Assembly: GCA_963700145.1 (NCBI GenBank)
Contig: OY969474.1
Location: 2,272,001-2,336,000, forward strand
Reading direction: 5' to 3'
Source: an uncultured Acidobacteriota bacterium
GTDB lineage: Bacteria; Acidobacteriota; Thermoanaerobaculia; Multivoradales; UBA5704
Length of the DNA: 64,000 nucleotides
The stretch's first letter is position 1. The number at the start of each line of letters is the position of its first letter. Below are positions 8,879-30,474 of this stretch, in pieces. Under the pieces are notes generated by a model. It was not told the origin of the DNA. It did not search any database and saw only the letters and a program-made list of their open reading frames with translations. Both the position numbers and the translations under genes were made by a program.

Positions 8879-8980
8879 GTGGACTCGCCCGACCGAAGTC
8901 GAGCTCGCCAGCATCTGCATTGTTGCTCTCAGTCAGTATTTTTACAAGGGCTGCGAGCCGCTTCTTCTAGAACAGCTCTC

Positions 8981-11077
8981 TTACGAGGCCTTCATCGCCT
9001 CCAGCGCCGCCGTCGGCCCGAGGAGGACCAGCTCGTCGCCTTGGGCGAGCACGGTCTGGGCGTCGGGGATGACGCGTTCTTCGCCGCCGCGGCCTTTGCG
9101 CTTGATCTCGAGGACGCGGGCGCCGATCGTGTGCGGCAGGGCGGCCTCGGCGAGGGTCTTGCCCACCAGCTCGGGCGGCACCGGCACCAGCCGCACCGCG
9201 AAGTCGGGCGGCAGCTCGACGTAGTCGCGGTTGGCCCCCGCCTCGCGGCCCGAGACGAAGGTGGCGAGGAGCGCCGGCCGCCCCAGCACCTCCTGGGCGT
9301 AGACGGCCAGCAGGTCCTTCTTCGCCAGCACCCCCACGAACTTGCCGTTCGGCTCGACCACCGGCAGCCGCTCGAAGTCGCTGGCGCCGAGGACGTGCGT
9401 CGCGGTGTGCAGCCGCTCGTCGCTCTGGACGACCTCGCGCACCGGCACCATCAGGTCGTGGGCCAGGACGTGACTCAGGTGCTCGGGCTCGTCGAGGGCG
9501 TGCTTGATGTCGTGGAGCGAGATCGCCCCCAGGAGGCGCCCGTCCTCCCCCACCACGAAGAGGCGCTGGCGGTGCGCCCCGAGGAACTTCTCCACGACCT
9601 TCTTGTAGCCGTCGTCCGGCCGCAGGACGTCGGAGTCGGGGCGGGCCAGGTCCGCCGCCTTGAGCCCGGCCAGCACCGCCTCCTCCATCCGCCAGGCGAG
9701 GTCCACGCCGCGCCGGCGCAGCGAGTCGGTGTAGATCGACGCCGCGTGCAGCTTGCGCGACAGGGTGGAGGCGAGGATCGACGCCACCATCAGCGGCAGG
9801 ATCAGGTCGTAGTTGCCGGTGAACTCGAAGAGGATGAGGATGGCGCTGATCGGCGCGTGGCTGGTGCCGGCCGCCACCGCCGCCATGCCCACCGCGGCGT
9901 AGGCGCCGTAGGCGGCAGTGTGGGCCGGCCAGAGGGTGTGGACCCAGTAGCCGTAGCCGCCGCCGACCAGGGCGCCGACGAGGAGCGACGGCGTGAAGAG
10001 CCCGCCCGAGCCGCCGCCGCCGACGGTCAGCGACGTGGCCAGGAGCTTGGCGAGCGGCAAGGCGAGGAGGAGCATGGCGCCGCCGAGCTGCGGCGAGAGG
10101 TCCAGCTCGCCGGCCAGCGCGAGGTTGATGATCTCGGAGCCGCCGCCCAAGACGTGCGGCGCCACCACCCCGAGGGCGCCCAGGAGCCCCATCCCCAGCA
10201 GCGGCCGCAGCGGCACCGGCAGCCAGGTGAGCCGGGCGAAGAGGGCGCGGCCGCCGCGCACGCCGTAGATGAAGGCCACCGAGACGATGGCGCCGACCAG
10301 CCCCAGCCCGGCGTAGGCCAGGATCTCCCAGCCGCTCTCGAGCGCGTACCCTGGCGCGGCGTAGATCGGCACGTTGCCGGCGAGGGCGCGGGCGATGAGG
10401 GTCGAGATGACCGAGGAGACGACGATCGGCCCGAAGATCTCGAGCGCGAAGTTGCCGAGGATGACCTCCATGGCGAAGATCGCGCCGCCGACCGGGATGT
10501 TGTAGGCGGCGGCGAGGCCGGCCGCCGCGCCGCAGCCGACCAGGATCTTGATCCGGTGGGTGGGCAAGCCGACGCGCGAGCCGAGCCAGGAGGCGACCAT
10601 GGCGCCCAGCCGGATCATCGGCCCTTCGCGCCCCAGCGAGCCGCCGCTGCCGACGGTGGCGATCGCCGCCACGGCGTTGACCAGGACCGGCCGCGCCGGC
10701 ACCTTGCCGCCGAGGAGCGCCACCGCCTCGATGAGTTGCGACATGCCGCCGCCGGACGCCGGCAGCTTGGTCGCCCAGTAGACCAGCCCGACCAGGAGGC
10801 CGCCGGCCGCCGGCGCCGCCACCACCCGCCACCAGGGGACCTGCTGCGCCACCTCGAAGAGCGCCCCCGAGGAGCCCCAGAGGAGGGCCTGGAGGCGGGC
10901 CATCGCGGCGTGCACCGAGACTCCCAACACCCCCGCCAGCACCCCGACGCCGGCGATCAGCAGGTAGAAGAGGCGGTCCTCGCGGGTCGCCGCCCCGAAC
11001 CGGCGGGCGACCGTGAAGTCGAACGACTTGAGGGACTTGCGCAGCCGCTCGAGGAGGGCGGCGAGGCGCGCGCGCAT
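8981..11077 (-). CDS. ClC chloride channel/antiporter family protein with CBS pair and TrkA-C domain
   Basis: GREGP, GGLFTP, SIYT; C-terminal CBS and RCK-C segments. Confidence 0.9.
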   Translation of the reverse strand: MRARLAALLERLRKSLKSFDFTVARRFGAATREDRLFYLLIAGVGVLAGVLGVSVHAAMARLQALLWGSSGALFEVAQQVPWWRVVAAPAAGGLLVGLVYWATKLPASGGGMSQLIEAVALLGGKVPARPVLVNAVAAIATVGSGGSLGREGPMIRLGAMVASWLGSRVGLPTHRIKILVGCGAAAGLAAAYNIPVGGAIFAMEVILGNFALEIFGPIVVSSVISTLIARALAGNVPIYAAPGYALESGWEILAYAGLGLVGAIVSVAFIYGVRGGRALFARLTWLPVPLRPLLGMGLLGALGVVAPHVLGGGSEIINLALAGELDLSPQLGGAMLLLALPLAKLLATSLTVGGGGSGGLFTPSLLVGALVGGGYGYWVHTLWPAHTAAYGAYAAVGMAAVAAGTSHAPISAILILFEFTGNYDLILPLMVASILASTLSRKLHAASIYTDSLRRRGVDLAWRMEEAVLAGLKAADLARPDSDVLRPDDGYKKVVEKFLGAHRQRLFVVGEDGRLLGAISLHDIKHALDEPEHLSHVLAHDLMVPVREVVQSDERLHTATHVLGASDFERLPVVEPNGKFVGVLAKKDLLAVYAQEVLGRPALLATFVSGREAGANRDYVELPPDFAVRLVPVPPELVGKTLAEAALPHTIGARVLEIKRKGRGGEERVIPDAQTVLAQGDELVLLGPTAALEAMKAS

Positions 11078-11257
11078 GAAAGGAGGGTATCAGGTGAGGA
11101 GGAGGGGCGGAGGGGGCCGGGTCGTCCCGGCCCCCTCGTCTGCGGAGGGTTGGGTACCGCAGGGCGGAAAGAACGTCCGCCAACGGGGGTCCGGTGCCGG
11201 CGGCGGACGCCGCCGGTGGCCCCCGGCTGGAGACGGCCGAAGCCGTCCTAGGACTTT

Positions 11258-12874
11258 CTACGGATGCCGAGGATACATTGAACTATGGGAATCTGACAAA
11301 TCGCGCAGCCGGTGGAGCCGGGAAGCCAGCTCGGCGGGGGTGAGACCGAGGCGGTCGGCGCGCTCGCGGAGCGGGGCGAGGTCGACCGGGTGGAGGTTGT
11401 GCCGGGAGGGGTCGTCGAGCCCGACGAGGTCGTACGGAGCGAGGCGTGGCAGGAGCCAGGCGGCCAGGTCGGCGGGCCCGGCGGCGCGGCGGAGCGTGCC
11501 GCGCACGAGGGCGACGAGCCGCGGGTCGTCCGCCCCGAGGAAGCCTTCCCACGCCGCCGGGCGGCCGGTCTCCTCCTCGGGCAGCAGCCGCTGGCGCAGC
11601 TCGGCCGAGCTGGCGGCGGCGAAGTAGAGCAGCGCGACCGGCACGAAGCGCGCGAAGTCGCCGGCCGCGAGGTAAGCGGCGCGGGTGAGCCGGTCGGTGT
11701 GCCCGGCCTCCGCCGCCAGGAGGCGCGCGTAGCGGCGGAGGCCGGCGGCCGAGGGGACCCCGCCGCCCTCCTCGCACAGCCGCGCCAGGCGCTCGACGCC
11801 GAGGAGGCTCCAGGCGATGCCGGTCGAGAAGAGCGGGTCGAGGAAGGCGAAGGCGTGCGGCAGCAGTGCCCAGCCCGCGCCGGCGGCGCGCGCCAGGCGG
11901 TGCTGGACGCGCGGCGCGGCGACCAGCGGGCGCACTGGCCGGGCGTCCGCGAACTGCGCGGCGATCGCGGGGAAACGGTCGAGGAGGAGGCGCCACTGCC
12001 GCTCGGGCGGCAGGTCCGGCGGCAGCGGCGACGGCACGTCGTTGCGCAGCAGGAAGCCGGCGCTCGCCACGCCGTGATCGAAGGGGAGGACGTACATCCA
12101 GCCGCCGGCGAAGAGGTGGTGCACGGCGGCGCGGTCGTCTGGGTAGGGGCCGGCGGCCATCGCGGCGCCCTGCTCCACCGCCACCGCCGCGAAGTCGCGG
12201 ACGCCCGCGAAGTGCCCGCCGACGAGGCGCGAGTCGGTGTGCAGGAGGCGGGCGGCCGAGGCGACCGGCAGGTGGCGGGCGAGGAAGCCGCCCGGGCCGC
12301 TGGCGTCGGCGACGAAGCGCGCGGCGAGCGCGAAGCGGCGGCCGTCGCGGTGTCCGGCGAGCCGCGCGCCGTGTCCTGAGAGCGCCTTGCCGGCGCTGCC
12401 GATCTCGACGCCGTCGAGCTCCGTCTCCTCCCACAGCGCCACCCCCTCCGCCGCGGCGCGCCGGGCGAGGAAGGCGTCCACGTCGGCGCGCAGCCAGTGG
12501 CTGTCGGCGACCTCGTCGCGCGGGCTGGCGGCGACGAGGAGGCGCGCGTCGTTGTCGGGGCCGTTGGCGTACGGCGCGCCCTCGCGCTGGGCGTAGAAGG
12601 TGAAGCCGCGCTTCAGGCCCCGCCGCAGCTCGGGGAAGGCGCGCAGCCAGCGGCCGTAGGCGGCGAGCGCGTGGAGGTCCGGCAGGTCGTAGCGGCGGGC
12701 CAGCCGCTCGAGCGCCAGGTTGGCAAGCGGCGTCGTGGACTCGCCGAGCGCGAAGCGCGGGTGGCGGCCGCGCTCGATGAGCACCACGCGGTGGCCCAGG
12801 CGGGCGAGGACGCGGGCCAGGATCGAGCCGGCGAAGCCCGAGCCGACGACCGCGACGTCGCAGCGCTCGCTCAT
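11258..12874 (-). CDS. FAD-dependent halogenase-family oxidoreductase
   Basis: GSGFAG, GEST, LKRGF, DASG, GWMYVLP, FLDPLFSTG; ATG overlaps the rSAM stop. Confidence 0.85.
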   Translation of the reverse strand: MSERCDVAVVGSGFAGSILARVLARLGHRVVLIERGRHPRFALGESTTPLANLALERLARRYDLPDLHALAAYGRWLRAFPELRRGLKRGFTFYAQREGAPYANGPDNDARLLVAASPRDEVADSHWLRADVDAFLARRAAAEGVALWEETELDGVEIGSAGKALSGHGARLAGHRDGRRFALAARFVADASGPGGFLARHLPVASAARLLHTDSRLVGGHFAGVRDFAAVAVEQGAAMAAGPYPDDRAAVHHLFAGGWMYVLPFDHGVASAGFLLRNDVPSPLPPDLPPERQWRLLLDRFPAIAAQFADARPVRPLVAAPRVQHRLARAAGAGWALLPHAFAFLDPLFSTGIAWSLLGVERLARLCEEGGGVPSAAGLRRYARLLAAEAGHTDRLTRAAYLAAGDFARFVPVALLYFAAASSAELRQRLLPEEETGRPAAWEGFLGADDPRLVALVRGTLRRAAGPADLAAWLLPRLAPYDLVGLDDPSRHNLHPVDLAPLRERADRLGLTPAELASRLHRLRDLSDSHSSMYPRHP

Positions 12875-13836
12875 GCCGCGCCGCAGGCGGCGCAGGCGAC
12901 CCGCGGCTCGGCGGCGCCGCCGCGGTTGATCCGCCCGAGGCGCGCCAGGCGCGACGCGGCGCAGGCCGGGCAGGCGGCGAGCCGCTCGACGTCCCAGAGG
13001 TCGGCCGCGACGATCCCCGGCAGCGGCAGCGCGGCGTCGAGCGCGGCCTCCAAGTCGGCGAGAGCCGGCGGCATCCACTCGCCGGCGGCGCGCAGCCGCT
13101 CCAGCTCGCCGTTGCCGCCGCGCACCGGGATGAGCGCCGCCCGCTCGGCGCCGAGCGCGAAAGCGTGGCGCACCGACTCGACGGCCCAGGCCGCCGCCTC
13201 GGCGGCGGGCACGAACGGCGCGCCGACCAGGACGAAGGCGCGCCAGGGCAGGCCGGCGGCGGCGAGGAAGTCGGCGGCGCGCGCCAGGTCGTCGAGGGTC
13301 GCCCGCTTGTTGAGCCGCGCCAGCGCCGCCGGGTGCACGGTCTCGACCCCCATCGCCACCTCCAGCGTGCCGGCGAGGCGCGCGGCGAAGGCGAGGCAGC
13401 GCGCGCCGACCAGTCGCGGGTGGCACTCGACGACGACGCGGGCGAAGGGCGCCGCGAGGGCGGCGATCGCGGCGTCGTCCTCGGGCGGCACGGCGCGCGG
13501 GTCGAAGAAGTTGCTGGCGTTGTAGAGCTTGAGGCGGGCCGGGAGCGGCTCGGCGAGGCCGGCGAGGGCGCGCCGGAGCTGCGCCGGCACCGCGCCGCGC
13601 GGCGTCGGGCCGTCGAGGGTCGAGCGCCAGAGGTCGCAGAAGACGCAGGTGAACGGGCACTCGGCGCCGGCGAGGAAGACGGTCAGCGCGCTCTCGCCGC
13701 GGCCGTCCGCGGTCCGCTCCTCCTCGACGAGCGCGCCGAGCGGGTGCCAGGGATCCACGGCCGCCTTCGCCGGCCGCAACGCGCGGATGCGGCGGTCCTC
13801 GGCGCGCGGCGTCGGCGCCGCGGCGGTTGCCGCCAC
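12871..13836 (-). CDS. Radical SAM protein, archaeosine RaSEA-like
   Basis: CPFTCVFC (CxxxCxxC), KLYNASNFFD, ECHP, EVAMGVET..LNK. Confidence 0.8.
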   Translation of the reverse strand: MAATAAAPTPRAEDRRIRALRPAKAAVDPWHPLGALVEEERTADGRGESALTVFLAGAECPFTCVFCDLWRSTLDGPTPRGAVPAQLRRALAGLAEPLPARLKLYNASNFFDPRAVPPEDDAAIAALAAPFARVVVECHPRLVGARCLAFAARLAGTLEVAMGVETVHPAALARLNKRATLDDLARAADFLAAAGLPWRAFVLVGAPFVPAAEAAAWAVESVRHAFALGAERAALIPVRGGNGELERLRAAGEWMPPALADLEAALDAALPLPGIVAADLWDVERLAACPACAASRLARLGRINRGGAAEPRVACAACGAA

Positions 13837-13839
13837 CCT

Positions 13840-15168
13840 CTACCCTCGCGCGTGCAGGCCGAAGAAGTGCGCGCGGTAGCGCTCGGCCGGGAGCGCGAAC
13901 CGCTCGCGCAGGGTCGCGGCCGGCGCGGCGCCGTGCTGGAAACGGCGCTTGGGGAAGACGGGCAGCTCGCAGCCGGCGACGGCGCGCACGCCGCGCGCCA
14001 GCACCTCGCCCTTCAAGGCGTAGAGCGCCGCGTGCGAGCCCGCGGTGAGCGCGTCGAAGGGGATCGCCTCGGCGGCCTCGACGACCGCCGGCCGCGTGTA
14101 CGGGCTGAAGGGCACGAAGCCGTGGCGGCGCGCCGGCGCCCAGCCGCGCACGCAGCCGCGCGACAGGCCGCCGCTGTAGGTCAGCGAGTGCTTGATCGCC
14201 TCCACCCCCCAGCCTTCCTGGTAGAGCATCGAGTTGCCGACGACGCTGCGGATCGTCAGCTCGCGGTTCTCCTCGATCGGGTAGTCCTTGAGGTTCTCGT
14301 CGCCGCCGTCGCCGTCCACGAGGTAGCGCCACTCGGGGTAGCGCGCGCGGATGCCGGCCATCAGCGCCAGGTTCATCGCCGCGCACTCGACGTCGAGCGG
14401 CTTGTAGTCCTCGATGACCGCGACGGCGACCAGCGCGTCGATCTCCTCGGCCCGCGCCGCGACCGCCTCGCCGAGCATCTCGAGCCCGGTGCGGCGCAGG
14501 AACTCGCGCGCCTGCTCGAGGTCGGGGCCGCCGCCGTCCACCGCCAGGGTGAAGGCCTTGAGCCGCGCCGGGCTCTGGCCGAGATCGAGGAGGACGCGGT
14601 GGAGCGTGAGGAGGACGCCGCCGCTGTCGAGGCCGCCCGAGAAGAGGACGCCGAGCGGCTCGCGCGGCGGCAGCGCCGAGACCCACTGCCGCAGCTCCTC
14701 GTAGAGGCGGCCGACGTAGAGCGTGCCGATGGCGTCGAGGTCGGGCGGCAGGGTGCCGCGCTCGGGCGCGAAGAAGCGGCGGTAGGTGGGGTTGGGGTCG
14801 GGGCAGCCGACCAGGCGCAGCGTCGTCACGTGGTGCGCCGGCGCCATCCGCGTGTAGCTGGGGTGAAACTGGTCGCCGTGTCCTTCGGCTTCGAGGCAGC
14901 GGCGGATCTCGTCGATCCGCTCGGCGACGACGAGCATCGGCCCATCGGTTTCCTTGGCCAGGAAGTAGCGCAGCGGGCGGTCGAGGCTGCGGGCGAGATA
15001 GACGCGGTCGCCCTCGCGCGCCGCCAGCGCGAAGGAGCCGCGGATGCCGAGCGCCTCCCGCGGGTCGGCGGCGAGGAGGCGCCGCTCGGCCTCGGCGCGG
15101 TCCAGGCCGAGGAGGAGCTGGGACGCGGGATCGACGAGGTCGAGGACGCGGGCGATGGCGACGGGCAT
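13840..15168 (-). CDS. Asparagine synthetase-related ATP pyrophosphatase / amide ligase
   Basis: FSGGLDS PP-loop, GDGGDE, KRRFQHG; no N-terminal catalytic Cys. Confidence 0.8.
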   Translation of the reverse strand: MPVAIARVLDLVDPASQLLLGLDRAEAERRLLAADPREALGIRGSFALAAREGDRVYLARSLDRPLRYFLAKETDGPMLVVAERIDEIRRCLEAEGHGDQFHPSYTRMAPAHHVTTLRLVGCPDPNPTYRRFFAPERGTLPPDLDAIGTLYVGRLYEELRQWVSALPPREPLGVLFSGGLDSGGVLLTLHRVLLDLGQSPARLKAFTLAVDGGGPDLEQAREFLRRTGLEMLGEAVAARAEEIDALVAVAVIEDYKPLDVECAAMNLALMAGIRARYPEWRYLVDGDGGDENLKDYPIEENRELTIRSVVGNSMLYQEGWGVEAIKHSLTYSGGLSRGCVRGWAPARRHGFVPFSPYTRPAVVEAAEAIPFDALTAGSHAALYALKGEVLARGVRAVAGCELPVFPKRRFQHGAAPAATLRERFALPAERYRAHFFGLHARG

Positions 15169-15180
15169 GGCGGCTCTCTC

Positions 15181-16419
15181 CTATTCGTAGCGCAGCGCCG
15201 CCGAGGGATCGACGCGGGCGGCGCGCCAGGCGGGGGCAAGGCAGGCAACCAAAGTGACGGCGAGCGCGAAGGCGACGATCGCAGCCAGGTCCACCGGCCG
15301 CACCCGGAACGGCACCGAGCGGATGAAGTAGATCGCCGCCACCTCGGCGTCGAAGCGGATCAGCTCGAAGCGGGTGAGCACCCAGGAGGCGCCGGCGCCG
15401 GCGGCGACGCCCAGGAGCGTCCCCACCGCCCCGAGCACCCCGCCGTAGGCGAGGAACACGCTGCGCAGGCTGGCCGGCGGCAGGCCGAGCGCCGCGAGGA
15501 CGCCCAGGTCGCGCATCCGCTCGCGCACCAGCACCACCAGCGTCGAGGCGACGTTGAAGGTCGAGACCAGGACGATCAGCCCGAGCACCAGGAAGAGCGC
15601 GATCTGCTGCAGCTTCAACGCCGCGAAGAGCTCGCGGTTGAACTGCTGCCAGTCGGAGACCAGGAAGCCGCTGCCGAGGAGGCGCGCGGCGGCCTCGCCG
15701 ATGCGCGGCGCCTCCTGCGGGTCCTCGACGGTGAACTCCAGCAGGTCGCTCGCCCCTTCCGCGCCCATCAGCCGCTCGACGAGCGGCCGCTCGAGCACCA
15801 CCCAGGAGCGGTCGAACTCGGCGAAGCCGGTCGAGAAGGTGCCGGTGACGCGCAGGCTCTGGTAGTGGAAGCGCGGCCGCCCCTCCTCGAAGCCGAGGGC
15901 GACGAGGCGGAGGACGGCGCCGGGCGCGACGCCGAGCTTCTTCGCCAGGTCGGCGCCGAGCACCGCGCCGGGGATGCCGTCGGCGCCCGGCCGGAGCTGC
16001 TCGGGGCGGGCGGCGAGCTGGCCGCCGCCGGGATCGACGCCGCGCAGCACCACCTCGACGCCGTCGGGCGCGGCGCCGCCGGCCAGCGACCCCTGGCCGT
16101 AGGCGACGCGCCCGACCTTGAGCACTCCGGGGATCGCCTCCAGTGCTTCCAGCCGGTGCGGCGGGACCCCATCCGCCTCCGCCAGCAGCGGGTAGGCCAC
16201 GACGGCGGCGTTGCCGCCGATCAGCTTCCCCTGGAGGTCTTCGCGGTAGCCGGTCATGAGCGCCATGGCGATGACCATGGCGGTGACGCCGAGCGCGGTG
16301 GCGAGGAGAGCGGCGCGGGCGGTGCCGTCGAGGAGGCGGCTGCGCGGCCCGCGCAGGAACCGCCAGGCGATCGTCCAGGCGAGCGGGGCGCGGGAAGGGC
16401 GGGCGCCGGCGCGGCTCAC
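15181..16419 (-). CDS. LolC/LolE-type ABC permease
   Basis: IAWRFLR, ALMTG, FNVASTL..LVRER, P.AARVDP..ALRYE; GTG overlaps the carA stop. Confidence 0.88.
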   Translation of the reverse strand: MSRAGARPSRAPLAWTIAWRFLRGPRSRLLDGTARAALLATALGVTAMVIAMALMTGYREDLQGKLIGGNAAVVAYPLLAEADGVPPHRLEALEAIPGVLKVGRVAYGQGSLAGGAAPDGVEVVLRGVDPGGGQLAARPEQLRPGADGIPGAVLGADLAKKLGVAPGAVLRLVALGFEEGRPRFHYQSLRVTGTFSTGFAEFDRSWVVLERPLVERLMGAEGASDLLEFTVEDPQEAPRIGEAAARLLGSGFLVSDWQQFNRELFAALKLQQIALFLVLGLIVLVSTFNVASTLVVLVRERMRDLGVLAALGLPPASLRSVFLAYGGVLGAVGTLLGVAAGAGASWVLTRFELIRFDAEVAAIYFIRSVPFRVRPVDLAAIVAFALAVTLVACLAPAWRAARVDPSAALRYE

Positions 16420-17522
16420 CAGCGGTCCGGCAGGAGGTCCAGGAAGCGGTCGAAGACGCCGGCCGCGTCGTGCGGCCCGGGCGCCGCCTCCGGGTGGTAC
16501 TGCACCGAGACGATCGGCCGGCCCTCGGCGGCGAAGCCCTCGACGGTGCCGTCGTTGAGGTTCACCTCGGTCACCCGGCAGCCGGCGGGGAGCGAGTCGG
16601 GGCGGACGGCGAAGCCGTGGTTCTGGCTGGTGATCACCACCCGGCCGCTCGGCAGCTGGTGCACGGGCTGGTTGCCGCCGTGGTGGCCGAACTTGAGCTT
16701 GAACGTCGAGCCGCCCAAGGCGAGGCCGAGGAGCTGGTGGCCGAGGCAGATGCCGAGGATGGGGACCTCGTGCGCCACGAGCTCCTTCACCGCGGCGATG
16801 GCGGTGGTGAGCGGCTCGGGGTCGCCGGGGCCGTTCGAGAGCACCACGCCGTCCACTTCCAACTCGCGGCAGCGCGCGGCCGGCGTGCGCGCCGGCAGGA
16901 CGTGCAGGCGGGCGCCGCGCGCGGCGAGCGAGCGCAGGATGTTCTGCTTGACGCCGAAGTCGTAGACCGCCAGGCGCCAGCGCTCCTCGCCGTCGGGCGC
17001 CAGCTCCCACTCTGCTGCGCAGGTCACCTCGTCGACCAGCGCCCGGCCGGTCATCGGCGGGAAGTCGGCGAGCTCGGCCTGGAGGGCGGCGGCGTCCGAG
17101 CGCTCGGTCGTCAGCACGCCGCGCAGCGCGCCGCGGTCGCGCAGGCGGCGCACGACGGCGCGGGTGTCGAGCCCTTCGACGGCCGGCACGTCGAAGCGGC
17201 GGAGGTAGGCCGGAAGGCCCTCGTCGGGGCCGTGCTCGGAACGATCGGCGGGCTCGCGGGTGAAGCGGCGCGCCACGAACCCCTCGACCCACGGGCGGGC
17301 CGACTCGACGGCGGTATCGGAAACGCCGTAGTTGCCGATGTGCGGCTGGGTCATGACGACGATCTGGCCGCGGTAGGAGGGGTCGGTGAGGACCTCCTGG
17401 TAGCCGGTCATCGAGGTGTTGAAGACCACCTCGCCGAAACGGGTGCCCGGGGAGACGGCCTCCCCCTCGAAGACGCTGCCGTCCTCGAGGACGAGGAGGC
17501 CGGGCGTGGGGGTTAACTGCAT
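16416..17522 (-). CDS. carA: Carbamoyl-phosphate synthase small subunit
   Basis: GEVVFNTSMTGYQE, SNGPGDP, GICLGHQ, QYHPEAAPGPHD. Confidence 0.97.
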   Translation of the reverse strand: MQLTPTPGLLVLEDGSVFEGEAVSPGTRFGEVVFNTSMTGYQEVLTDPSYRGQIVVMTQPHIGNYGVSDTAVESARPWVEGFVARRFTREPADRSEHGPDEGLPAYLRRFDVPAVEGLDTRAVVRRLRDRGALRGVLTTERSDAAALQAELADFPPMTGRALVDEVTCAAEWELAPDGEERWRLAVYDFGVKQNILRSLAARGARLHVLPARTPAARCRELEVDGVVLSNGPGDPEPLTTAIAAVKELVAHEVPILGICLGHQLLGLALGGSTFKLKFGHHGGNQPVHQLPSGRVVITSQNHGFAVRPDSLPAGCRVTEVNLNDGTVEGFAAEGRPIVSVQYHPEAAPGPHDAAGVFDRFLDLLPDRW

Positions 17523-17531
17523 AGGTGGGGC

Positions 17532-17692
17532 GGAGGCGCCGGGGTGCTCCGGCCGGGAACCGGCGCGAGCGTCAAGGCCTGCTCGATCCGAGGCTCGCGC
17601 CTGCGCTTCGCTGCGCGCCGGACCGGTCTCACCTGCCGCGTTCTTGCCGGCGCTTGCTCAGAGCTTCCCGGCCGGAGCACCCCGGCGCCTCC
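17532..17692 (+). repeat. 161-bp structured repeat, copy A
   Basis: Perfect 28-bp terminal inverted repeat; internal motifs shared with 46234-46396 and 49892-50052. Confidence 0.8.
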
Positions 17693-17699
17693 TAGTACC

Positions 17700-18731
17700 T
17701 TAATGAGCGGCGAGGGCCTGAATGCGGCGGTTGACGACGGGGGCGAGGGCGCGCACCTGTTCCATCAGCTCCTCGAGCTGCTCGGGGAGGATCGCCTGGT
17801 TGCCGTCGGAGAGGGCCTCGGCCGGGCGGTCGTGGACTTCGACGATCAGGCCGTCCGCCCCGACCGCCACGGCGGCGCGCGACAGCGGCAGGACCTTCTG
17901 CGCCGAGCCGGCGGCGTGGCTGGGGTCGGCGATGATCGGCAGGTGGCTGATGCGCTTGACGGCGCAGATCGCCGCCACGTCGAGCGTGTTGCGGCTGTGG
18001 TCGGCGAAGGTGCGGATGCCGCGCTCGCAGAGGATGACGTCGGGGTTGCCTTGGTCGAGGATGTACTCGGCGGCCAGCAGCAGCTCGGTCACCGTCGCCG
18101 TCATGCCGCGCTTGAGCAGCACCGGCCGGCCGCAGCGGCCGGCGTGCTTGAGGAGGGTGTAGTTCTGCATGTTGCGGGCGCCGATCTGGACGATGTCGGC
18201 GTGCTCGGCGACGGCGGGCAGGACGTCGATGTCGGTCGCCTCGCTGACCACCGGCAGACCGGTCTCCTCGCGCACGCGGGCGAGGATGCGCAGCCCCTCG
18301 ACGCCGAGGCCCTGGAAGGCGTAGGGGCTGGTGCGCGGCTTGTAGGCGCCGCCGCGCAGGACGTGCGCGCCGGCGGCCTTCACGCGGCGGGCGATGCGCA
18401 GCGTCTGCTCGTGGCTCTCGACCGAGCAGGGGCCGGCCATGACCACCAGTTCGGGGCCGCCGATGGCGGCGCCGCCGACCTGGACGACCGTGTCGTCCGG
18501 GCGGAACTCGCGCGACACCAGCTTGTAGGGGTGGCTGACCTGGATGACTTCGAGGACGCCGGGGAAGGCGTCGAAGACGCCGCGGTCGAGCGCCCCGACG
18601 TTGCCGGTGATGCCCACTGCCGTCCGCTGGGCGCCGGCGATCGGGTGCGCCTTGAGCCCCCGGCGCTCGACCTGCCGCACGACCGCGTCGATCTCGGCGG
18701 CCGTGGCGTCCATCTTCATCACGATCAGCAT
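17700..18731 (-). CDS. aroF: DAHP synthase, class I beta
   Basis: AGPCSVES, GGAYKPRTSPY, IGARNMQN, CERGIRTF, DPSH. Confidence 0.95.
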   Translation of the reverse strand: MLIVMKMDATAAEIDAVVRQVERRGLKAHPIAGAQRTAVGITGNVGALDRGVFDAFPGVLEVIQVSHPYKLVSREFRPDDTVVQVGGAAIGGPELVVMAGPCSVESHEQTLRIARRVKAAGAHVLRGGAYKPRTSPYAFQGLGVEGLRILARVREETGLPVVSEATDIDVLPAVAEHADIVQIGARNMQNYTLLKHAGRCGRPVLLKRGMTATVTELLLAAEYILDQGNPDVILCERGIRTFADHSRNTLDVAAICAVKRISHLPIIADPSHAAGSAQKVLPLSRAAVAVGADGLIVEVHDRPAEALSDGNQAILPEQLEELMEQVRALAPVVNRRIQALAAH

Positions 18732-18820
18732 TGACAGCCTCTTGACGAAGAAGGCCCCTACGCGGGGCCTGTCGGACGGGTATCATAGCCGAACTGCCGG
18801 CCTCGCCGAGGAGCTTCCCC

Positions 18821-19600
18821 ATGCCGCACCGCCGTGCCGCCGTTCTCGCCGCCGCCCTGCTGCTCGCCTTCGCGGCGACCGCCCAGGCCGCTTACACCAT
18901 CTACCTCAAGGACGGCTCGCGCCTGGTGGCGCAGAAGAAGTACGTGGTCGTCGGGGAACGGGCGGTCTTCACCGCCGAGAACGGCACCCGCAGCTTCGTC
19001 GCGGCCGCGGAGATCGACGTCGCGCGGACGGAGGAGGCGAACCGGCAGGGCTACGGCAACGCCCAGGTGCTGCCCGACGAGGTCATCGAGGCGCCGGCGT
19101 CGCCGCCCAAGCGGCGGACCTCGCTGACCGACCTGGCGAAGCGGACCGCGCCGGCAGCCCCGGGTGCCCCGACCGCCCGGCGCGAGGCTGCGCGGCCGGA
19201 GGTCGCCTCGCCCAAGACCGGCACCGGCGCGGTCGATTTCATGGCCCGCGAACGGCGGCCGTACCCGAACCTGGAGGTCGCCTCCGAGCTGCTCGAGCTC
19301 TACCGCGGCCAGGGTGTGGAGGAGGTGCAGCTCTTCGCCGGCACCCGCGCCGACCGGCCGCTGGTCGAGATCACCACCGCCTCCGAGGCCTCGGTCCTCC
19401 AGGCCCTGACCGCCAGCGCCGACGCCCTCCTCCAGCTCCGCCGGCGCCACCCCGGCAAGGTCGCCGCCCTCGAGCTCCTGATGGCCACCCCCGCCCGCGA
19501 GCGGGCCGGGCAGTTCGTGCTGACGCCGGACCTGGCGGAGGAGCTGGCGGCGAAGAGGGTCGAGGTGACGGCGTTCTTCGTGCGCAACGTGCAGTTCTGA
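18821..19600 (+). CDS. Hypothetical exported protein
   Basis: Signal peptide ending AQA, YTIYLKDG N-terminal domain, host-like codon usage. Confidence 0.7.
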   Translation: MPHRRAAVLAAALLLAFAATAQAAYTIYLKDGSRLVAQKKYVVVGERAVFTAENGTRSFVAAAEIDVARTEEANRQGYGNAQVLPDEVIEAPASPPKRRTSLTDLAKRTAPAAPGAPTARREAARPEVASPKTGTGAVDFMARERRPYPNLEVASELLELYRGQGVEEVQLFAGTRADRPLVEITTASEASVLQALTASADALLQLRRRHPGKVAALELLMATPARERAGQFVLTPDLAEELAAKRVEVTAFFVRNVQF

Positions 19601-24761: not shown

Positions 24762-25906
24762 CCCTTCTTCAGGAGCTGGCGGGCGATGACCAGGCGCTGG
24801 ATCTCGCTCGTCCCCTCGCCGATCGTGCAGATCTTGCAGTCGCGGAAGTACTTCTCGGCGCGGTAGTCCTTGATGAAGCCGTAGCCGCCGTGGATCTGCA
24901 CGCCGCGCTCGGCGCAGAAGACCGCGGCCTCGCCGGCGTAGAGCTTGGCCTCGGAGGCGAGGCGCGTCACCTTCTGGCCGCGGTCGAGCGCCTCGGCGGC
25001 GGCGTAGGTCAGGATCTCGGCGGCGGCGATGCGCGTGGCCATCTCGGCGAGCGCGAACTGAATCGCCTGAAACGACGCGATCGGCTGGCCGAACTGCTCG
25101 CGCTCCTTGGCGTAGGCGACCGAGGCGTCGAAGGCGCCGATCGCAGTGCCGAGGCCGAGCGCGGCGATCGAGATACGGCCGCCGTCGAGGATCTCCATCG
25201 CCTGGCGGAAGCCCTCGCCGGGCGCGCCGAGGAGGCGGTCCTCGCCGACGAAGCAGTCCTCCATCACCACCTCGGCGGTGTCGGAGGCGCGGATGCCGAG
25301 CTTGTTCTCCTTCTTGCCCGGGCGGAAGCCGTCCATCCCCTTGTCGAGGACGAAGGCGGAGATGTTGCGGTTGCGGGGGCCGTCCGGGTCGGTGACCGCG
25401 AAGACGACGCAGACGTCGCCCACCGAGCCGTGGGTGGTGAAGGTCTTGGCGCCGTTGAGCACCCAGCCGCCGTCGCGCCGCTCCGCGCGGGTGCGAGTGC
25501 CGGCGGCGTCGGAGCCGGCGCCCGGCTCGGTCAGGCTCCAGGCGCCGATCTTCTCCCCCTTAGCCAGCGGCGTCAGCCAGCGGCGCCGCTGCTCCTCGGT
25601 GCCGAAGCGGTAGATGTGGTTGCTGCAGAGTGAGTTGTGGGCGGCGACGCTGATCCCGACCGAAGGGTCCACCTTGGACAGCTCGGTGACAACGATCACG
25701 TACTCGACGTACCCCAGCCCCGCGCCGCCGTACTCCTCGGGGAAGAGCACGCCGAGGAAGCCGAGCTCCCCGGCCTTGGCCATCACCTCGCGCGGGAAGC
25801 GCTGGCTCTCATCGATCTCGTCGACGAGCGGATCCACCTCCTGCCGCGCGAACTCCCGCGCCGTCTCCTGGATGGCGCGCTGCTCCGGCGTGAACGAGAA
25901 GTCCAA
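24758..25906 (-). CDS. Acyl-CoA dehydrogenase
   Basis: LTEPGAGSD, KLGIRAS, REQFG, GGYG, IGEGTSEIQ; probable TTG start at 25906. Confidence 0.93.
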   Translation of the reverse strand: MDFSFTPEQRAIQETAREFARQEVDPLVDEIDESQRFPREVMAKAGELGFLGVLFPEEYGGAGLGYVEYVIVVTELSKVDPSVGISVAAHNSLCSNHIYRFGTEEQRRRWLTPLAKGEKIGAWSLTEPGAGSDAAGTRTRAERRDGGWVLNGAKTFTTHGSVGDVCVVFAVTDPDGPRNRNISAFVLDKGMDGFRPGKKENKLGIRASDTAEVVMEDCFVGEDRLLGAPGEGFRQAMEILDGGRISIAALGLGTAIGAFDASVAYAKEREQFGQPIASFQAIQFALAEMATRIAAAEILTYAAAEALDRGQKVTRLASEAKLYAGEAAVFCAERGVQIHGGYGFIKDYRAEKYFRDCKICTIGEGTSEIQRLVIARQLLKKG

Positions 25907-26107
25907 GTGGGTCCCTTTCCGAGTCGTCGGATGGTATCGCGGCGGTGTCCGAGGGAGCAAAAGGCGCTTCCCGCCAGTAGTCTCCAGTTCTTGAGCTTCT
26001 CTCCGAGCCATGTCTCGGGCACGGCGGTTACCTCCTTGGGTGGGTCGGTTGGTGAAGCATGGCTCCGGGGGGTTCCCGGAGAGGTGGGAGATCCGGTCGG
26101 GACGGCT

Positions 26108-26338
26108 CCGGATAAGGGAACGCGACGCCCGGATAGATCCGCGCGACGGCCGGATACATCCGCGGCGCGTCCGGATACATCCGCGGGCCGTCCGGATACA
26201 TCCGCGGCGCTTCCGGATCGATCCGCGCCGCTTCCGGACATATCCTCGACACTTCCGGATACATCCGCGGGAGCTCCGGATATGTCCGCCGCGCCTCCGG
26301 ATAGATCCGCCGCGCTGCCGAATACATCCCCAGGCCTT
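26108..26338. repeat. Degenerate 21-bp tandem array with palindromic core CGGA-N4-TCCG
   Basis: About 11 units, consensus CCGGATACATCCGCGGCGCNT. Confidence 0.85.
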
Positions 26339-26411
26339 GGGAAGGCGTCCGGAGACCTCTAGGCGACCTCCGGAGAGGACGCGCGGGGGTCTTCCGCCGC
26401 CGCGGGGTCAT

Positions 26412-26486
26412 TTACGCCACCTTCTCCAGCTCCGCCGCGAGCTCCAGCTCCTCCGGAGTCAGGGCGCGAAGGTGCGCGGCCCAAAG
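26412..26486 (-). pseudogene. Possible truncated 3' gene remnant at the islet border
   Basis: LWAAHLRALTPEELELAAELEKVA* with host-like codons and no start codon (TAG immediately upstream). Confidence 0.3.
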
Positions 26487-26525
26487 CTATGATGCCCGCC
26501 TTCTGCCAACAGGGAGGGCGAGCGG

Positions 26526-27545
26526 ATGACCGTCGCTGACGCGATCGCGCAGTTCCTCTTCCACTGCCGCTACGAGAAGAACCTCAGCCCCAAGACCCTA
26601 AAGGCCTACGGCATCGACCTCCGGCAGTTCGCCGAGCACCTGGCGAGCCGCCAGCCCGCTCCGGAGGCGATCGAAGCGGTAGACAAGACGGCGCTGCGCG
26701 AGTTCATCCGCGAGCTCTTCGGCCGCTTGGCCGAGAAGAGCGTCAAGCGGAAGGTCGCGACGCTCAAGGCGCTGTACCATTTCCTTGAGCGGGAGGACGT
26801 ACTGGCCGCAAGCCCGTTCCGCAAGATGGATGTCCGCATCAAGGCCACACGCCGGCTGCCGAGGACTGTGGCGTTGACCGACCTCCGGCGCCTGTTTGCG
26901 CACCTCTACCGCGAGAAAGCGCGGCATCCCAACTGCAAGTCCCAGGCATACCGGGAACTCGTGCGGGACATGGCCGTCTTGGAGGTACTCTTCGGGACAG
27001 GAGCTCGGGTGTCCGAGGTATGCAGTCTTACTGCCGACGCGGTGGACCTTCGTAGAGGTCGCATTCGATTCCTAGGCAAGGGCGCGAAGGAACGAATACT
27101 GCGGCTCTCTGATCCTGAGGCCCTTGCTACGCTCCGCGACTATTCCTGCCTCTGGGCCGTGGAGGTAGCAACCAATGGTTATTTCTTTCATAATCGCCTG
27201 GGACGACGGCTCTCCGAGCAATCCGCGCGGACAATGCTGTGCAAGCACGTCTGCGCCTCCGGCCTTCGACTCCACATGACTCCGCATATGCTCCGGCATT
27301 CAGTCGCTACTCTCTTGCTGGAGGAAGGCGTAGATATCAGGTATATCCAGCACCTGCTTGGCCACAGCTCTCTCTTGACAACCCAGCTTTACACCCAGGT
27401 CTCAGAGCAGCCTTATCACCAGATCCTCGCCTCCAACCATCCCCGGCGCCATCTCCGCACCGCGCCACCTAGAGTACAAGCATCCTCGACGAGCCTGCCG
27501 ACTGCCTCCTGTCATCCACGTCGCTTGCATAGTTCCTCACCTTGA
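26526..27545 (+). CDS. Tyrosine recombinase/integrase, XerC/D-like
   Basis: TGARVSE (R), GKG.KER (K), HMLRHS (HxxR), LLGH, TTQLY (Y); GGAGG RBS. Confidence 0.93.
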   Translation: MTVADAIAQFLFHCRYEKNLSPKTLKAYGIDLRQFAEHLASRQPAPEAIEAVDKTALREFIRELFGRLAEKSVKRKVATLKALYHFLEREDVLAASPFRKMDVRIKATRRLPRTVALTDLRRLFAHLYREKARHPNCKSQAYRELVRDMAVLEVLFGTGARVSEVCSLTADAVDLRRGRIRFLGKGAKERILRLSDPEALATLRDYSCLWAVEVATNGYFFHNRLGRRLSEQSARTMLCKHVCASGLRLHMTPHMLRHSVATLLLEEGVDIRYIQHLLGHSSLLTTQLYTQVSEQPYHQILASNHPRRHLRTAPPRVQASSTSLPTASCHPRRLHSSSP

Positions 27546-27588
27546 GCTAGACTTTGACCAACTACTGTACTCGGATCGACTCTGGCTA

Positions 27589-27610
27589 GATAACTAGGGA
27601 TTATCGTGCA
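27589..27610 (+). repeat. Left recombination-site-like inverted repeat (22 bp)
   Basis: GATAACTAGGGATTATCGTGCA; exact reverse complement at 29665-29686. Confidence 0.9.
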
Positions 27611-27845
27611 ATTATGGCTCTCCTCAAACTTGGTGTGGGTAACTAAACGGCCCCCTGGTAGGGATAGGCGAGCGGCCGGTGGCCGTGGGAGGCGCGGGAA
27701 AGCCCGTCCCACCGGCCTTCCGCGGACTTCCGCCCCTCCCACTGGCCCGACTACGGCCTCGTAGAAGGCCGGGTGTAAGAGGGTGTACAAGAACGCGACG
27801 GCGCCAATCGGCCTAACTTTTTCCTTCCTGCTCCTACTTCCTCGC

Positions 27846-28832
27846 ATGGCCCGCCGCCAACCCACAGCTACTGAAGGAGAGCCGCAATCACCGTCGCCGT
27901 TGCGCCTGGTGTGGCTCGCCTTCTGGGGCTTCGCAATCAGTCTTGCTTATGGACTATGCGCTGCCGGAATCGTCTACGCTATCGAAGGAAAGTACGATGC
28001 CCAGCAGTTCCTCATCATGTATATCGGGCGCTTCAACATGCTGGTGACGACCGGTCTAATCATCGCCACAGTTCTGATCATAGGGGCTTCGCAAGATGTC
28101 ATTCCTGATACGATTGAAGCTGCTTTCACTGACGAGGATTTGGCAGACACGGACTACTCCGAGCCGCGAAAGTACTATTCGAGCATCGCATCAACGGTTT
28201 CCTTTGCATCACTAATGATCATTCTTGGTCTAGCGGTCTTTACGCTGTGCCGGTTTCCGCTCTCAGGCGCAGGGCACACATTTCTGCTGATCGCCGGGTG
28301 CATGCAGTGGGCGCTCGCCAGTTATGTCGGCAGGAAGCTGCGCCACGCCGGGATGATGATCCACTCCCTGCAAAAGATCCAAGTTAGACGGAACCTCTTT
28401 CAGGAGCGTGCACTCGACCCCATCAACACGGCCGTGCACATCGCTACGACGCTGACCGTGGTGTTCATCTATCTGCACATCCGCAGTTATTACTATGGTC
28501 CATTCGAGTATGATGGGTTTCTCGGAAAGAGTGCCCAAGTTTTTCTTCTCCTGCCCGCAGTGATCGCCACGCCAATCTTGGTGATCTTCAACTTCTTCCC
28601 GCGCATTGTGCTCCGCAAGCTGTATGACAAGTCGATCGACGTCGAATTACAACTGCTACACACCGAACTGCAGAACGAAGCGTTGAGCCCTTTTGAGAAG
28701 CGGCGTAGACTGATGGAGGTCGACAAACTTTATCGCGATCAGTTGCAGTACAGCCTACAACTAACACTCAGCGATCTGCCGATCGGTATCACCGTCTTGA
28801 TCATGCTTATTCAGCCGCTGTTGAAGAACTGA
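27846..28832 (+). CDS. Hypothetical multi-pass membrane protein (islet cargo)
   Basis: About 7 hydrophobic segments, low-GC codons, no family recognised. Confidence 0.75.
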   Translation: MARRQPTATEGEPQSPSPLRLVWLAFWGFAISLAYGLCAAGIVYAIEGKYDAQQFLIMYIGRFNMLVTTGLIIATVLIIGASQDVIPDTIEAAFTDEDLADTDYSEPRKYYSSIASTVSFASLMIILGLAVFTLCRFPLSGAGHTFLLIAGCMQWALASYVGRKLRHAGMMIHSLQKIQVRRNLFQERALDPINTAVHIATTLTVVFIYLHIRSYYYGPFEYDGFLGKSAQVFLLLPAVIATPILVIFNFFPRIVLRKLYDKSIDVELQLLHTELQNEALSPFEKRRRLMEVDKLYRDQLQYSLQLTLSDLPIGITVLIMLIQPLLKN

Positions 28833-28877
28833 GAGAGCCCCGACACTGCGCACGGCGGCGAATCGGCGGCGGCCGCG

Positions 28878-29669
28878 TCATAACAAAAAATACAATCCAA
28901 ACGCAACTTCCAGCTTCATCAGCGCCAGTGCTACCGCTTGACGATTTAGGTAAAACCAGTAGACGTAGGATGTCGCCAGTACCAAGGCCATTGCGAGCAG
29001 ACATACTACAGCGACCATATCGCGGATCTGCGAACACAGCATGATCACCGCCAGACCTTGCTGGGCAAAGGCCGCCCGCGCAACATACTTGGGATTGATT
29101 CGATGGAGGACGGAAATCGGATCCCCCGGCCGGTCGGGAAGGTCTTTGCATAATTCGCGACCCAGCATCGAGAGAAACAATGCGACGGCGACCACTCGAA
29201 GACGGGCAGCGTCAGCGGGAAAGTGCGTCATCAAGATCAATACAGGAACGGTCGTTGTTGCGGCGACGTATAGCGATTTCAGTGCCGGCAGGTACTCGAC
29301 CACGTAGCGATAGCTGATGCACGCTGCAAAACCCGCGTAGTAAAGAAATGCGGTTTCGATGCGTTGGACGAAAGAACGAGTTGTCAGCAGCGCGAGCGCC
29401 AAGCACGCGTAATAAAGAACGACGACAAATATGAGCGTGACATCTCCTTTCGGGAGAGGCCGGTCCGGGTGATTGATGCGATCTTTCTCCACATCATCCA
29501 GGTCATTGAGTATGTAGGTGCACATGGCCCCGAATAGGAGCGGCACGGCAGCCCGGAAACTAAGGGTGAGGTCTCTCGTTCGCGCAAGCATGGGCAGGAG
29601 GATTGACAAAACGGCCAGTCCGGACGAGTATGGCCGCATCAATCGCAGTGCTGCACGTGCCCGCTGCAC
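28878..29669 (-). CDS. UbiA-family prenyltransferase (islet cargo)
   Basis: NDLDDVEKDRINHPDRPLP and RELCKDLPDRPGD Asp-rich motifs; multiple TM segments. Confidence 0.85.
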   Translation of the reverse strand: MQRARAALRLMRPYSSGLAVLSILLPMLARTRDLTLSFRAAVPLLFGAMCTYILNDLDDVEKDRINHPDRPLPKGDVTLIFVVVLYYACLALALLTTRSFVQRIETAFLYYAGFAACISYRYVVEYLPALKSLYVAATTTVPVLILMTHFPADAARLRVVAVALFLSMLGRELCKDLPDRPGDPISVLHRINPKYVARAAFAQQGLAVIMLCSQIRDMVAVVCLLAMALVLATSYVYWFYLNRQAVALALMKLEVAFGLYFLL

Positions 29670-29686
29670 GATAATCCCTAGTTATC
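29665..29686 (-). repeat. Right recombination-site-like inverted repeat (22 bp)
   Basis: TGCACGATAATCCCTAGTTATC; overlaps the predicted GTG start of the UbiA gene. Confidence 0.9.
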
Positions 29687-29865
29687 GTTGGACGGAAAGG
29701 GCATCACCCTCCGGACACATTTCCAGAGGGATGAGTGCAGGTGTATAGAGGGCGAGTCGGCTAAGCTAGCGGGCTATGAATCGCCATCTCAGACGGGTCT
29801 GGCGAGCTGAGGCCGTTCGCGCTAATTTCTTACGGATCGACCTAGCCGCGCAGTCTGCCTGAAGG

Positions 29866-30474
29866 GTGGCAGCCCGCATCCCCCTCTGGCTGAAGCTCCT
29901 CTACACCGCCTGGCTGGCGGTGTGGGTGCCGGCGGTTTGGCGGAACAGCGGCCTGGAGAACTTCTTCTGGCTGTGCGACGTGGCGAACATCCTTGTCGGG
30001 GTGGCGCTCTGGCTGGAGAGCCCACTGCTGCTCTCGGCGCAGGCGGTGGGGGTGCTGCTGGTACAGGTCTTCTGGACGGTGGATTACCTCGGGGCGCTCC
30101 TCACGGGCCACCATCCGATCGGCGGCACGGAGTACATGTTCAACGCCGCCGAGCCGCTCTGGATGCGGTCGCTGTCGCTGTTCCACATGGCGCTGCCGCC
30201 GCTGCTGATCTGGGGCGTGCGCCGCCTGGGCTACGACCGCCGGGGGTTCTGGCTGCAGACGGCGCTGACCTGCTTCCTGCTGCCGGCGACCCTCCTCCTG
30301 ACCGACCCGGCGCGCAACCTCAACTGGGTCTGGGACCCGTTCGGGATCGAGCAGCGGTGGCTCCAGGCCGAACACTACGTCCTGGCGCTGATGCTCCTCT
30401 ACCCGCTTCTCCTCTACCTCCCGGCCCACCTCCTGCTCTCCCTCTGGACGCGACGGGCTAGACTTCCCAAGTGA
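29866..30474 (+). CDS. Hypothetical membrane protein
   Basis: NFFWLCD, GGTEYMF, LSLFH, NLNWV; host-like codons. Confidence 0.75.
   Translation: MAARIPLWLKLLYTAWLAVWVPAVWRNSGLENFFWLCDVANILVGVALWLESPLLLSAQAVGVLLVQVFWTVDYLGALLTGHHPIGGTEYMFNAAEPLWMRSLSLFHMALPPLLIWGVRRLGYDRRGFWLQTALTCFLLPATLLLTDPARNLNWVWDPFGIEQRWLQAEHYVLALMLLYPLLLYLPAHLLLSLWTRRARLPK

Follow-up and report, generated by a model that had tools for sequence, protein, structure and literature searches.

pdif sites are two-protein sites and occur mostly on plasmids. According to PMC6449649 and PMC13141974, the pdif modules of Acinetobacter plasmids lie between inverted Xer-type sites, are shuffled between replicons and use the host XerC/XerD pair. 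The vpma locus of Mycoplasma agalactiae and the vsp locus of M. bovis are a second close parallel. According to PMC2268961, an Xer-like tyrosine recombinase (Xer1, Mbr) is encoded beside these loci. The sites belong to the 5' untranslated regions of whole open reading frames (ORFs) and immediately precede their start codons, and inversion joins silent ORFs to fixed expression signals outside, with a unique promoter. The genes encode paralogous surface lipoproteins of one family, form arrays with one mapped promoter and are found in one genus cluster. Here we describe a locus of an uncultured Acidobacteriota bacterium in which the gene of an Xer-like tyrosine recombinase is followed by two convergent genes enclosed by a perfect 22-bp inverted repeat. 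The locus is part of a stretch of 64,000 nucleotides that is called the window below. It is probable that the repeats are the sites of the neighbouring recombinase, that the segment between them flips, and that cassettes are replaced at these sites over evolution. The relevant features are:

26526–27545, plus strand: Xer-like tyrosine recombinase, 339 aa (PF00589, Phage_integrase, E 2.9e-35; PF02899, SAM_1, E 7.6e-15)
27589–27610, plus strand: putative proximal recombination site; core 27589–27605 (GATAACTAGGGATTATC), then GTGCA
27783–28832, plus strand: cargo gene 1, encoding a membrane protein that belongs to no known family (349 aa in the longest ORF)
28878–29669, minus strand: cargo gene 2, UbiA-family prenyltransferase (E 8.9e-16), 263 aa, GTG start directly past the site core
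29665–29686, minus strand: putative distal recombination site; core 29670–29686 on the minus strand

The locus and its relatives share with vpma and vsp the adjacent Xer-like tyrosine recombinase and the position of the sites just upstream of start codons. They differ in cargo and spread: genes for two unrelated enzymes or membrane proteins always stand tail-to-tail within a single pair of sites, the foreign cargo is replaced from strain to strain, and the 17-bp core of the site is conserved across phyla. With pdif they have in common modules of varying cargo that are bounded by inverted Xer-type sites. In contrast to pdif, a dedicated recombinase scoring below the XerC and XerD cut-offs is present, the arms of the sites are symmetric and 5 bp long, the locus lies on a chromosomal island, and start codons are found at the sites.

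Three further arrangements are relevant. Integrons combine a tyrosine recombinase with promoterless, horizontally exchanged cassettes that need outside expression signals. Here, too, a tyrosine recombinase adjoins horizontally exchanged cassettes whose expression would rely on signals outside them, and some of the cargo is defence-like. In contrast to integrons, however, folded attC sites are missing, and so is a co-directional array of attC-bounded, one-orientation cassettes behind attI/Pc; instead, two convergent genes lie between identical inverted 17-bp sites of the double-strand type. The G segment of phage Mu, the C segment of P1 and the P segment of e14 are kb-sized invertible segments with convergent coding sequences and an adjoining invertase (Gin, Cin, Pin). 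Those invertases are serine recombinases that swap C-terminal parts of homologous tail-fibre genes, whereas here a tyrosine recombinase would swap whole unrelated ORFs at the ribosome-binding site. Finally, in laboratory recombinase-mediated cassette exchange (RMCE) two identical inverted lox or FRT sites permit flipping and exchange but no excision. The identical inverted site pair is the same in our locus, although RMCE is an engineered method; we know of no description of a natural use of this geometry. A promoter inverton of the fimS type does not fit the locus either. The element is 2.1 kb long and contains whole genes, and the recombinase reaches 56 bits against a cut-off of 221 bits with the models for tyrosine-type DNA invertases (FimB/E-type).

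The recombinase family and its predicted sites

The recombinase has the attributes of the tyrosine recombinase superfamily, i.e. the PF00589 domain, the catalytic set and the two-domain fold. The catalytic residues (R, K, H-x-x-R, H and Y) can be aligned without exception to the XerD structure 1a0p, and the motifs RVSE, GKGAKER, HMLRHS and LLGH...LYT are aligned to the matching motifs of that protein. In NCBIfam it stays below the cut-offs for the dimer resolvases XerC (227.8 versus 335.15 bits) and XerD (213.9 versus 329.6 bits). The scores with the integron integrase models integrase_gron (87.6 versus 265 bits) and PRK15417 (59.6 versus 435 bits) are lower still, so that it is no IntI-type integrase by this measure. 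It is the third paralogue in its genome, which elsewhere encodes two XerC/D-like proteins that are 35–38% identical to it. In a quick tree, its family forms a clade (support 99) apart from these XerC/D paralogues. The closest relatives (P0002–P0004) are 79–81% identical, and family recombinases with 57–64% identity were found in seven of 40 related genomes. In total, the family extends over at least six phyla and over soil and gut samples. The named hosts of family loci include members of Acidobacteriota, Thermodesulfobacteriota, Gemmatimonadota, Campylobacterota, Bacteroidota and Verrucomicrobiota.

A first-pass annotation of the window had described a perfect 22-bp inverted repeat that begins 43 nt after the recombinase stop codon and whose identity ceases abruptly. 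All of this was re-found. The 22-mer GATAACTAGGGATTATCGTGCA at 27589–27610 on the plus strand recurs as its exact reverse complement at 29665–29686, the recombinase ORF (26526–27545) ends 43 nt before the first copy, and identity ends at 22 bp on both sides. In the 64-kb window no further match with up to three mismatches exists, and none of 100 dinucleotide shuffles gave any match. The 17-bp core (up to two mismatches) is confined to these two places in the whole 5,455,767-bp one-contig genome, and so is the looser pattern GATAAC-N5-ATTAT. As judged from the sequence, the 22-bp repeats are recombination sites and not chance repeats.

The two-arm organization that had been proposed for each copy, GATAA and TTATC around an asymmetric 7-bp centre, likewise holds. 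The consensus of 81 unique sites is GATAACT-N4-ATTAT(C/G). The T at position 6 was left free by the search and is nevertheless present in 72 of the 81 sites. Positions 7–10, the four variable bases, are 70–80% purine, and the GATAACT half faces outward in every case. The site would thus consist of two 5-bp palindromic arms round an asymmetric 7-bp centre, with variation between loci confined to the middle four bases. The suggested resemblance to dif is only partial: the general layout is similar, but the arms measure 5–6 bp and the recombinase belongs to neither the XerC nor the XerD family according to their cut-offs. A single dif per replicon is also not what is observed, as two inverted sites flank the cargo and this arrangement recurs in 26 pairs elsewhere. 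Unlike the XerC-XerD heterodimer sites of pdif, the predicted sites have palindromic GATAA/TTATC arms and, in 51 of 69 loci, a dedicated recombinase next to them. Because of the palindromic arms and the single adjacent recombinase, a homotetramer acting on both sites in a Cre-like manner, according to the established tyrosine-recombinase mechanism, appears probable.

The numbers given for relatives come from scans of genome and metagenome collections, which yielded 36 and 57 loci, respectively, 69 of them with a full-length recombinase match. For the tree, duplicates (L020 = L037, L029 = L065), loci with partial or too distant recombinases (L046, L051, L053, L055–L058, L084, L085, L094, L102–L115) and near-identical gut copies (L088, L090, L091, L093, L096, L098, L104) were set aside. 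A site was accepted if the 17-bp core had at most one mismatch in the 12 arm positions and was located within 700 nt of the recombinase gene. Such a core is present in 51 of the 69 full-length loci, while the estimated chance expectation is about 0.003 per locus. The annotation had named a lack of such sites near recombinase homologues as an outcome that would speak against its proposal, and had suggested a scan of their neighbourhoods for sites and varying cargo. The sites are there, and the cargo varies between loci.

Inward-facing site pairs, spaced 0.8–9 kb, were found 26 times. The 5-nt centre is identical within the pair in all 26, but 18 different centres occur among them. Only three other combinations of a plus and a minus site exist. 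Their centres do not match, and all three are cross-combinations, with a stray site or with the second cassette that adjoins the recombinase in L087. Three further inward-facing pairs with identical centres come from the window, L019 and L021, and in three of four related genomes that were fetched with long flanks an inverted pair of the 17-bp core lies beside the recombinase. Since partners match while loci differ, this is the signature expected of the crossover region of a tyrosine recombinase. It is highly improbable, in comparison, that the repeats are operators of a dimeric transcription factor or terminal inverted repeats of a transposon, unlinked to the recombinase. GATAA-N7-TTATC is indeed dyad-symmetric and lies just upstream of start codons, and the inner arm reads GATAAT in reverse, a hexamer resembling a -10 element. 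Such elements, however, do not account for asymmetric centres that are identical within each of the 26 pairs and come in 18 versions between loci, for rearrangement breakpoints exactly at the sites (see below), or for the linkage of sites and recombinase across at least six phyla. In addition, only two copies exist in the genome and there is no target duplication.

Some individual members of the family deserve mention. In L087 one recombinase is flanked by two cassettes (7963–9887 and 11043–15299) with the centres TATTT and TTAAA. A cultured strain, Aliarcobacter cryaerophilus ATCC 43158, carries a family recombinase (43.6% identical) on its plasmid pACRY43158 (L138, 7001–11430). There, a convergent pair of genes for 824 aa and 338 aa follows the recombinase between inverted copies of the variant site AATAATAGGATATTATA, and a second integrase gene is located just upstream of the family recombinase. 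In a phage collection, three unannotated faecal records named 'Bacteriophage sp.' (H6–H8) encode recombinases of family level with 39–43% identity.

Inversion and replacement of cassettes at the sites

Inversion at the sites is seen directly in family members. Between the near-identical metagenome contigs L089 and L091, the left flank is collinear with 99.6% identity over 7,167 bp and the recombinase with 98.9%, but the 2.7-kb segment between the sites, which is 99.5% identical, is inverted. The contig L093 has the cassette orientation of L091. Similarly, L097 and L098 agree at 99.97% as far as the proximal site; beyond it they are 100% identical but run in opposite orientation. The inversions in both groups, L089/L091/L093 and L097/L098, are bounded exactly by the sites. 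Over larger distances, homologous cassettes of L019 and L024 (65% identity over the full length) are found in opposite orientation relative to the recombinase, and the same applies to L040 and L032. A different kind of rearrangement was noticed in L091, where an insert of about 8.35 kb (10934–19286) follows the recombinase in comparison with the otherwise 99.5% identical L088, L089, L090 and L104.

Replacement is equally seen in the family. L095, L099 and L097 are 97–99% identical in recombinase and far flank but contain unrelated cargo; both limits of the divergent stretch fall within the sites. The cargo of L104/L088 and of L090 is unrelated to that of L089/L091, with a 99.5% identical recombinase and the same centre. 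The second proposal of the annotation, a gene module served by its own recombinase, is borne out for the family: beside near-identical recombinases and flanks the cargo is unrelated, and the breakpoints coincide with the sites. These breakpoints would favour a replacement by double site-specific exchange. Whole-cassette replacement at the same sites over evolutionary time would also explain the foreign, low content of guanine and cytosine (GC) of the cargo. Furthermore, 16 sites have a contig end no more than 111 nt away, and for several the distance is only 0–6 nt. This fits assembly graphs that branch at the sites and may hint at heterogeneity within the populations.

Cassette architecture, cargo and the state of the locus

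In the window, the GC content is 0.50–0.57 in the segment and 0.70–0.79 in the host flanks, with the recombinase gene being intermediate. Thus, the two enclosed genes are convergent and of lower GC content, as the annotation stated, but its further statement that their 5' ends face the sites applies directly only to the UbiA gene, which starts right at its site. The membrane-protein gene now starts about 180–240 nt from its site, due to an insertion of 276 nt that is described below. The same organization is found in 16 tabulated loci. Their segments measure 1.7–6.1 kb, the genes are convergent in all 16, and the GC content of the segment is below that of both flanks in all except L049. The longest cassette, in L037, owes its 6.1 kb to a gene for a Mutator-family (IS256-like) transposase inside (13649–15040).

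At 20 of the 32 cassette ends of these loci, the inward ORF starts 14–28 nt from the first base of the site, and the start ATG may even overlap the site as ATTATG. Since the centre is purine-rich and the start codons abut the sites, the centre lies at the Shine-Dalgarno position, and it would there take the place of the ribosome-binding site. In several loci the recombinase stop codon is as little as 7–36 nt from the proximal site. This leaves no room for a separate promoter, and hence the proximal gene is presumably read together with the recombinase gene or from within it. In one gut-associated branch, the recombinase gene and the proximal gene instead point away from each other. Outside the distal site there is usually a gene reading away, which starts at a distance of 50–130 nt.

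From these data a mechanism can be proposed. Because the sites are inverted and have matched asymmetric centres, recombination would flip the 2.1-kb segment and never excise it. The outer half of each site would stay with the chromosome, whereas the inner half and the abutting start codon would move with the cargo. Consequently, the two tail-to-tail genes would trade places with each flip: the one joined to the recombinase-gene side would become joined to the far side of 188 nt, and vice versa. We infer activity in this genome, the positions of promoters and any switch of expression from the family and from this geometry.

The cargo of the family is varied, but it consists of recurring, co-evolving gene pairs whose members are non-homologous:

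L019, L024, L033, L045: membrane protein of about 360 aa without known function and CDP-alcohol phosphatidyltransferase
L038: PAP2 phosphatase and a 366-aa protein without known function
L021, L044: TIR protein and methyltransferase
L032, L040: radical SAM enzyme with proteins of about 490 aa and about 200 aa without known function
L037, L104, L049: STAND-like AAA_16/TPR or TPR proteins and ATP-grasp enzymes

In PADLOC, the TIR cargo matches a ThsB-like model and the radical SAM cargo the pVip model. For both cargo genes of the window, PADLOC gave no match. The membrane protein also has none in NCBIfam and hits only clusters of 'hypothetical protein' in the ESM Atlas, and the UbiA protein is far below every NCBIfam cut-off. 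An assignment of the membrane protein as RcgA, a rhizobial conjugation protein, was considered and dropped as too weak (20% share at rank 30).

The fact that the same unrelated genes stay paired speaks for some functional coupling of the two halves. How the flip would act on such a pair can be read in two ways. It may be an either/or switch as in the vpma and vsp loci, or it may shift the relative dosage of two co-operating genes. A third view is that the sites serve mainly for capture and exchange of cassettes, as in a two-ended integron or a natural form of RMCE, with both genes co-expressed from the two flanks and inversion as a harmless by-product. The inverted geometry would then have been chosen because inverted sites cannot delete the cassette. 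We regard this as possible but somewhat doubtful. It agrees with cargo that is foreign in GC content and whose replacement between near-identical strains has its breakpoints at the sites, with conserved gene pairs whose non-homologous members co-evolve in the manner of two-component systems, and with the gene that usually reads away 50–130 nt beyond the distal site, where a divergent promoter region is plausible. It is not exclusive of flipping by the adjacent recombinase as the main role. Against it, both orientations persist in near-identical strains, no donor form, either a circle or a plasmid copy, was seen, and the differing centres of replaced cassettes speak against a simple site-by-site exchange.

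A homologue of the cargo pair of the window shows what happened to the membrane-protein gene. The pair recurs in genome G220, from another family of the same class, with 72% nucleotide identity and again between two sites. The G220 cassette has two extra membrane genes in its middle, one of them PEMT/ICMT-like, and both outer genes start at a GTG abutting the site. The family recombinase was not found in the G220 assembly, whose contig ends 123 nt past the distal site. The alignment with G220 defines two features in the window:

27606–27764, plus strand: remnant ORF of 52 codons opened by the site-abutting GTG, the original start of the membrane-protein gene
27608–27883, no strand assigned: GC-rich insertion of 276 nt, position ±5 nt, with GCAAT repeated at both joints

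The homologue in G220 (L132, 7124–8071) starts at the corresponding GTG. The first 2 nt of the window past the site align with G220, then the insertion begins, two bases after the GTG, and homology resumes at 27884. The insertion is a single copy in the genome. The body of the membrane-protein gene is open from GTG 27783 or ATG 27846, both of which lie within the insertion. The insertion may supply a new start and perhaps a promoter. Since it cuts the gene from the site-borne start codon, one output is altered in this genome.

Several findings count against the proposed flipping and replacement and have to be set beside the evidence given above. Both inversion polymorphisms come from loci whose recombinases, though inside the family clade, are just 41–43% identical to that of the window. 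The replaced cassettes of L095, L099 and L097 differ in their centre (ACTG, GTTG, ATTT), which a simple spacer-matched exchange would fail to explain; such replacements may also have been imported when conserved flanks recombined by homology. Among the 18 full-length loci without a nearby core, five have less than 400 nt of flank and two have a pair a few kb away, but in 11 no site is present although the downstream flank measures 983 nt or more. Members without sites are scattered among the site-bearing ones in the tree. Hence, the recombinase can persist without a cassette. A search for other inverted repeats at the members without sites gave nothing convincing. Between the family loci L063 and L065, divergence sets in 59 nt past the recombinase and not at a site. 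No promoter was located either, as the promoter/terminator scan gave one promoter-like match against 1.4 expected by chance. Co-expression of two partners would account for the conserved, co-evolving and non-homologous pairs no less well than alternative states would, and the 276-nt insertion may have disabled one output. At the locus itself, the contigs of the sole public holder (run X1) bridge both sites in the reference orientation, and no strand-change joint and thus no inversion is present in them, at a depth of 3–4 that is powerless for a minority orientation. The invertible segment proposed in the annotation is confirmed for family members, which invert exactly at the sites, while in this genome the reference orientation alone was encountered.

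With the insertion, the absence of the second orientation from these contigs and the loss of cassettes by some family recombinases in mind, one may ask whether the locus is a relic, i.e. a system that once worked but no longer flips or matters here, in an island that was acquired horizontally as a block. We consider this unlikely, because neither 22-bp copy has lost its perfect match to the other, the recombinase ORF is uninterrupted and encodes every catalytic residue, and the interrupted membrane-protein gene keeps an open frame of 349 codons. Flipping and replacement by the neighbouring recombinase thus remain our preferred interpretation for the locus.

The locus is embedded in an accessory island with additional features:

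25907–29874, no strand assigned: accessory island of 3,968 bp comprising repeat array, recombinase, cassette and far flank, absent in the sister species G004
26087–26371, no strand assigned: tandem array of about 10–13 units of 21 bp (CCGGATACATCCGCGG-N4-T), upstream of the recombinase and inside the island
29687–29874, no strand assigned: island-specific flank of 188 nt beyond the distal site; next comes a host gene that points away from it (29866–30474)

In G004 the flanks are 95–97% identical and 157 unrelated bp take the place of the 3,968-bp island. This genome is without a family recombinase; its best match (E 9e-38) is at the level of XerC/D paralogues. The spot lies between an acyl-CoA dehydrogenase gene and the gene of a 202-aa membrane protein and differs in length between the genomes (G004, 157 bp; G003, 914 bp; G002, about 4.2 kb; this genome, 3,968 bp). 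With different DNA in each species of the genus, this intergenic spot (25907/29874 in the window; G002:C29, G003:C13) looks like an insertion hot spot. An interpretation of the repeats as attL and attR of an integrated element was rejected, because the two copies are in inverted orientation and neither of them falls on an island end (25907 or 29874). The 188-nt far flank is a candidate position for a second outside promoter. Each unit of the tandem array contains a short palindrome (CGGAT..ATCCG), and the array is possibly bound by a protein. Arrays with a period of 20–24 bp but differing sequence are located up to 1 kb upstream of the recombinase in seven of 33 loci (window, L021, L025, L030, L031, L047, L062). 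No match to Rfam with E up to 1 was obtained in 25800–30000.

Novelty and significance

The ingredients of the system are known, namely inversion switches of tyrosine recombinases, modules bounded by Xer sites (pdif) and promoterless cassettes (integrons). What we did not find in print is their combination: a dedicated Xer-like recombinase, a 17-bp site that is conserved across phyla and lies over the ribosome-binding position, and tail-to-tail foreign two-gene cassettes that are flipped and replaced. Searches for promoter invertons use short spans. A broad survey of gene-altering inversions required, according to PMC9881135, that the repeat lies strictly inside the coding sequence, and this rule excludes the present design from that survey. 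Published searches for programmed inversions would miss the family. In the literature, no published description of this recombinase-cassette family was found, although supplementary locus tables of inversion surveys (e.g. PMC9881135) may list members.

Taken further, the family may be a cross-phylum platform distinct from integrons, in which an Xer-like recombinase and a 17-bp site plug in, flip and swap two-gene cassettes but never excise them. It would then be a natural recombinase-mediated cassette exchange, whose cargo is largely made up of two-component conflict or envelope-modifying systems with halves that are dosed or alternated by the flip. We put this forward tentatively, as a quite conceivable extension.

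If the family works in the way proposed here, it would be a second general way, besides integrons, to hold promoterless foreign genes at a site served by a recombinase, with flipping in addition. The compact recombinase and its 17-bp site with a locus-variable 4-nt centre could serve as an orthogonal tool for inversion and exchange. The cargo includes TIR proteins, viperin-like radical SAM enzymes, STAND-type proteins and lipid-modifying membrane enzymes. Uncharacterised two-gene systems, and phase-variable phenotypes of soil bacteria that are uncultured, could thus be drawn from this family.

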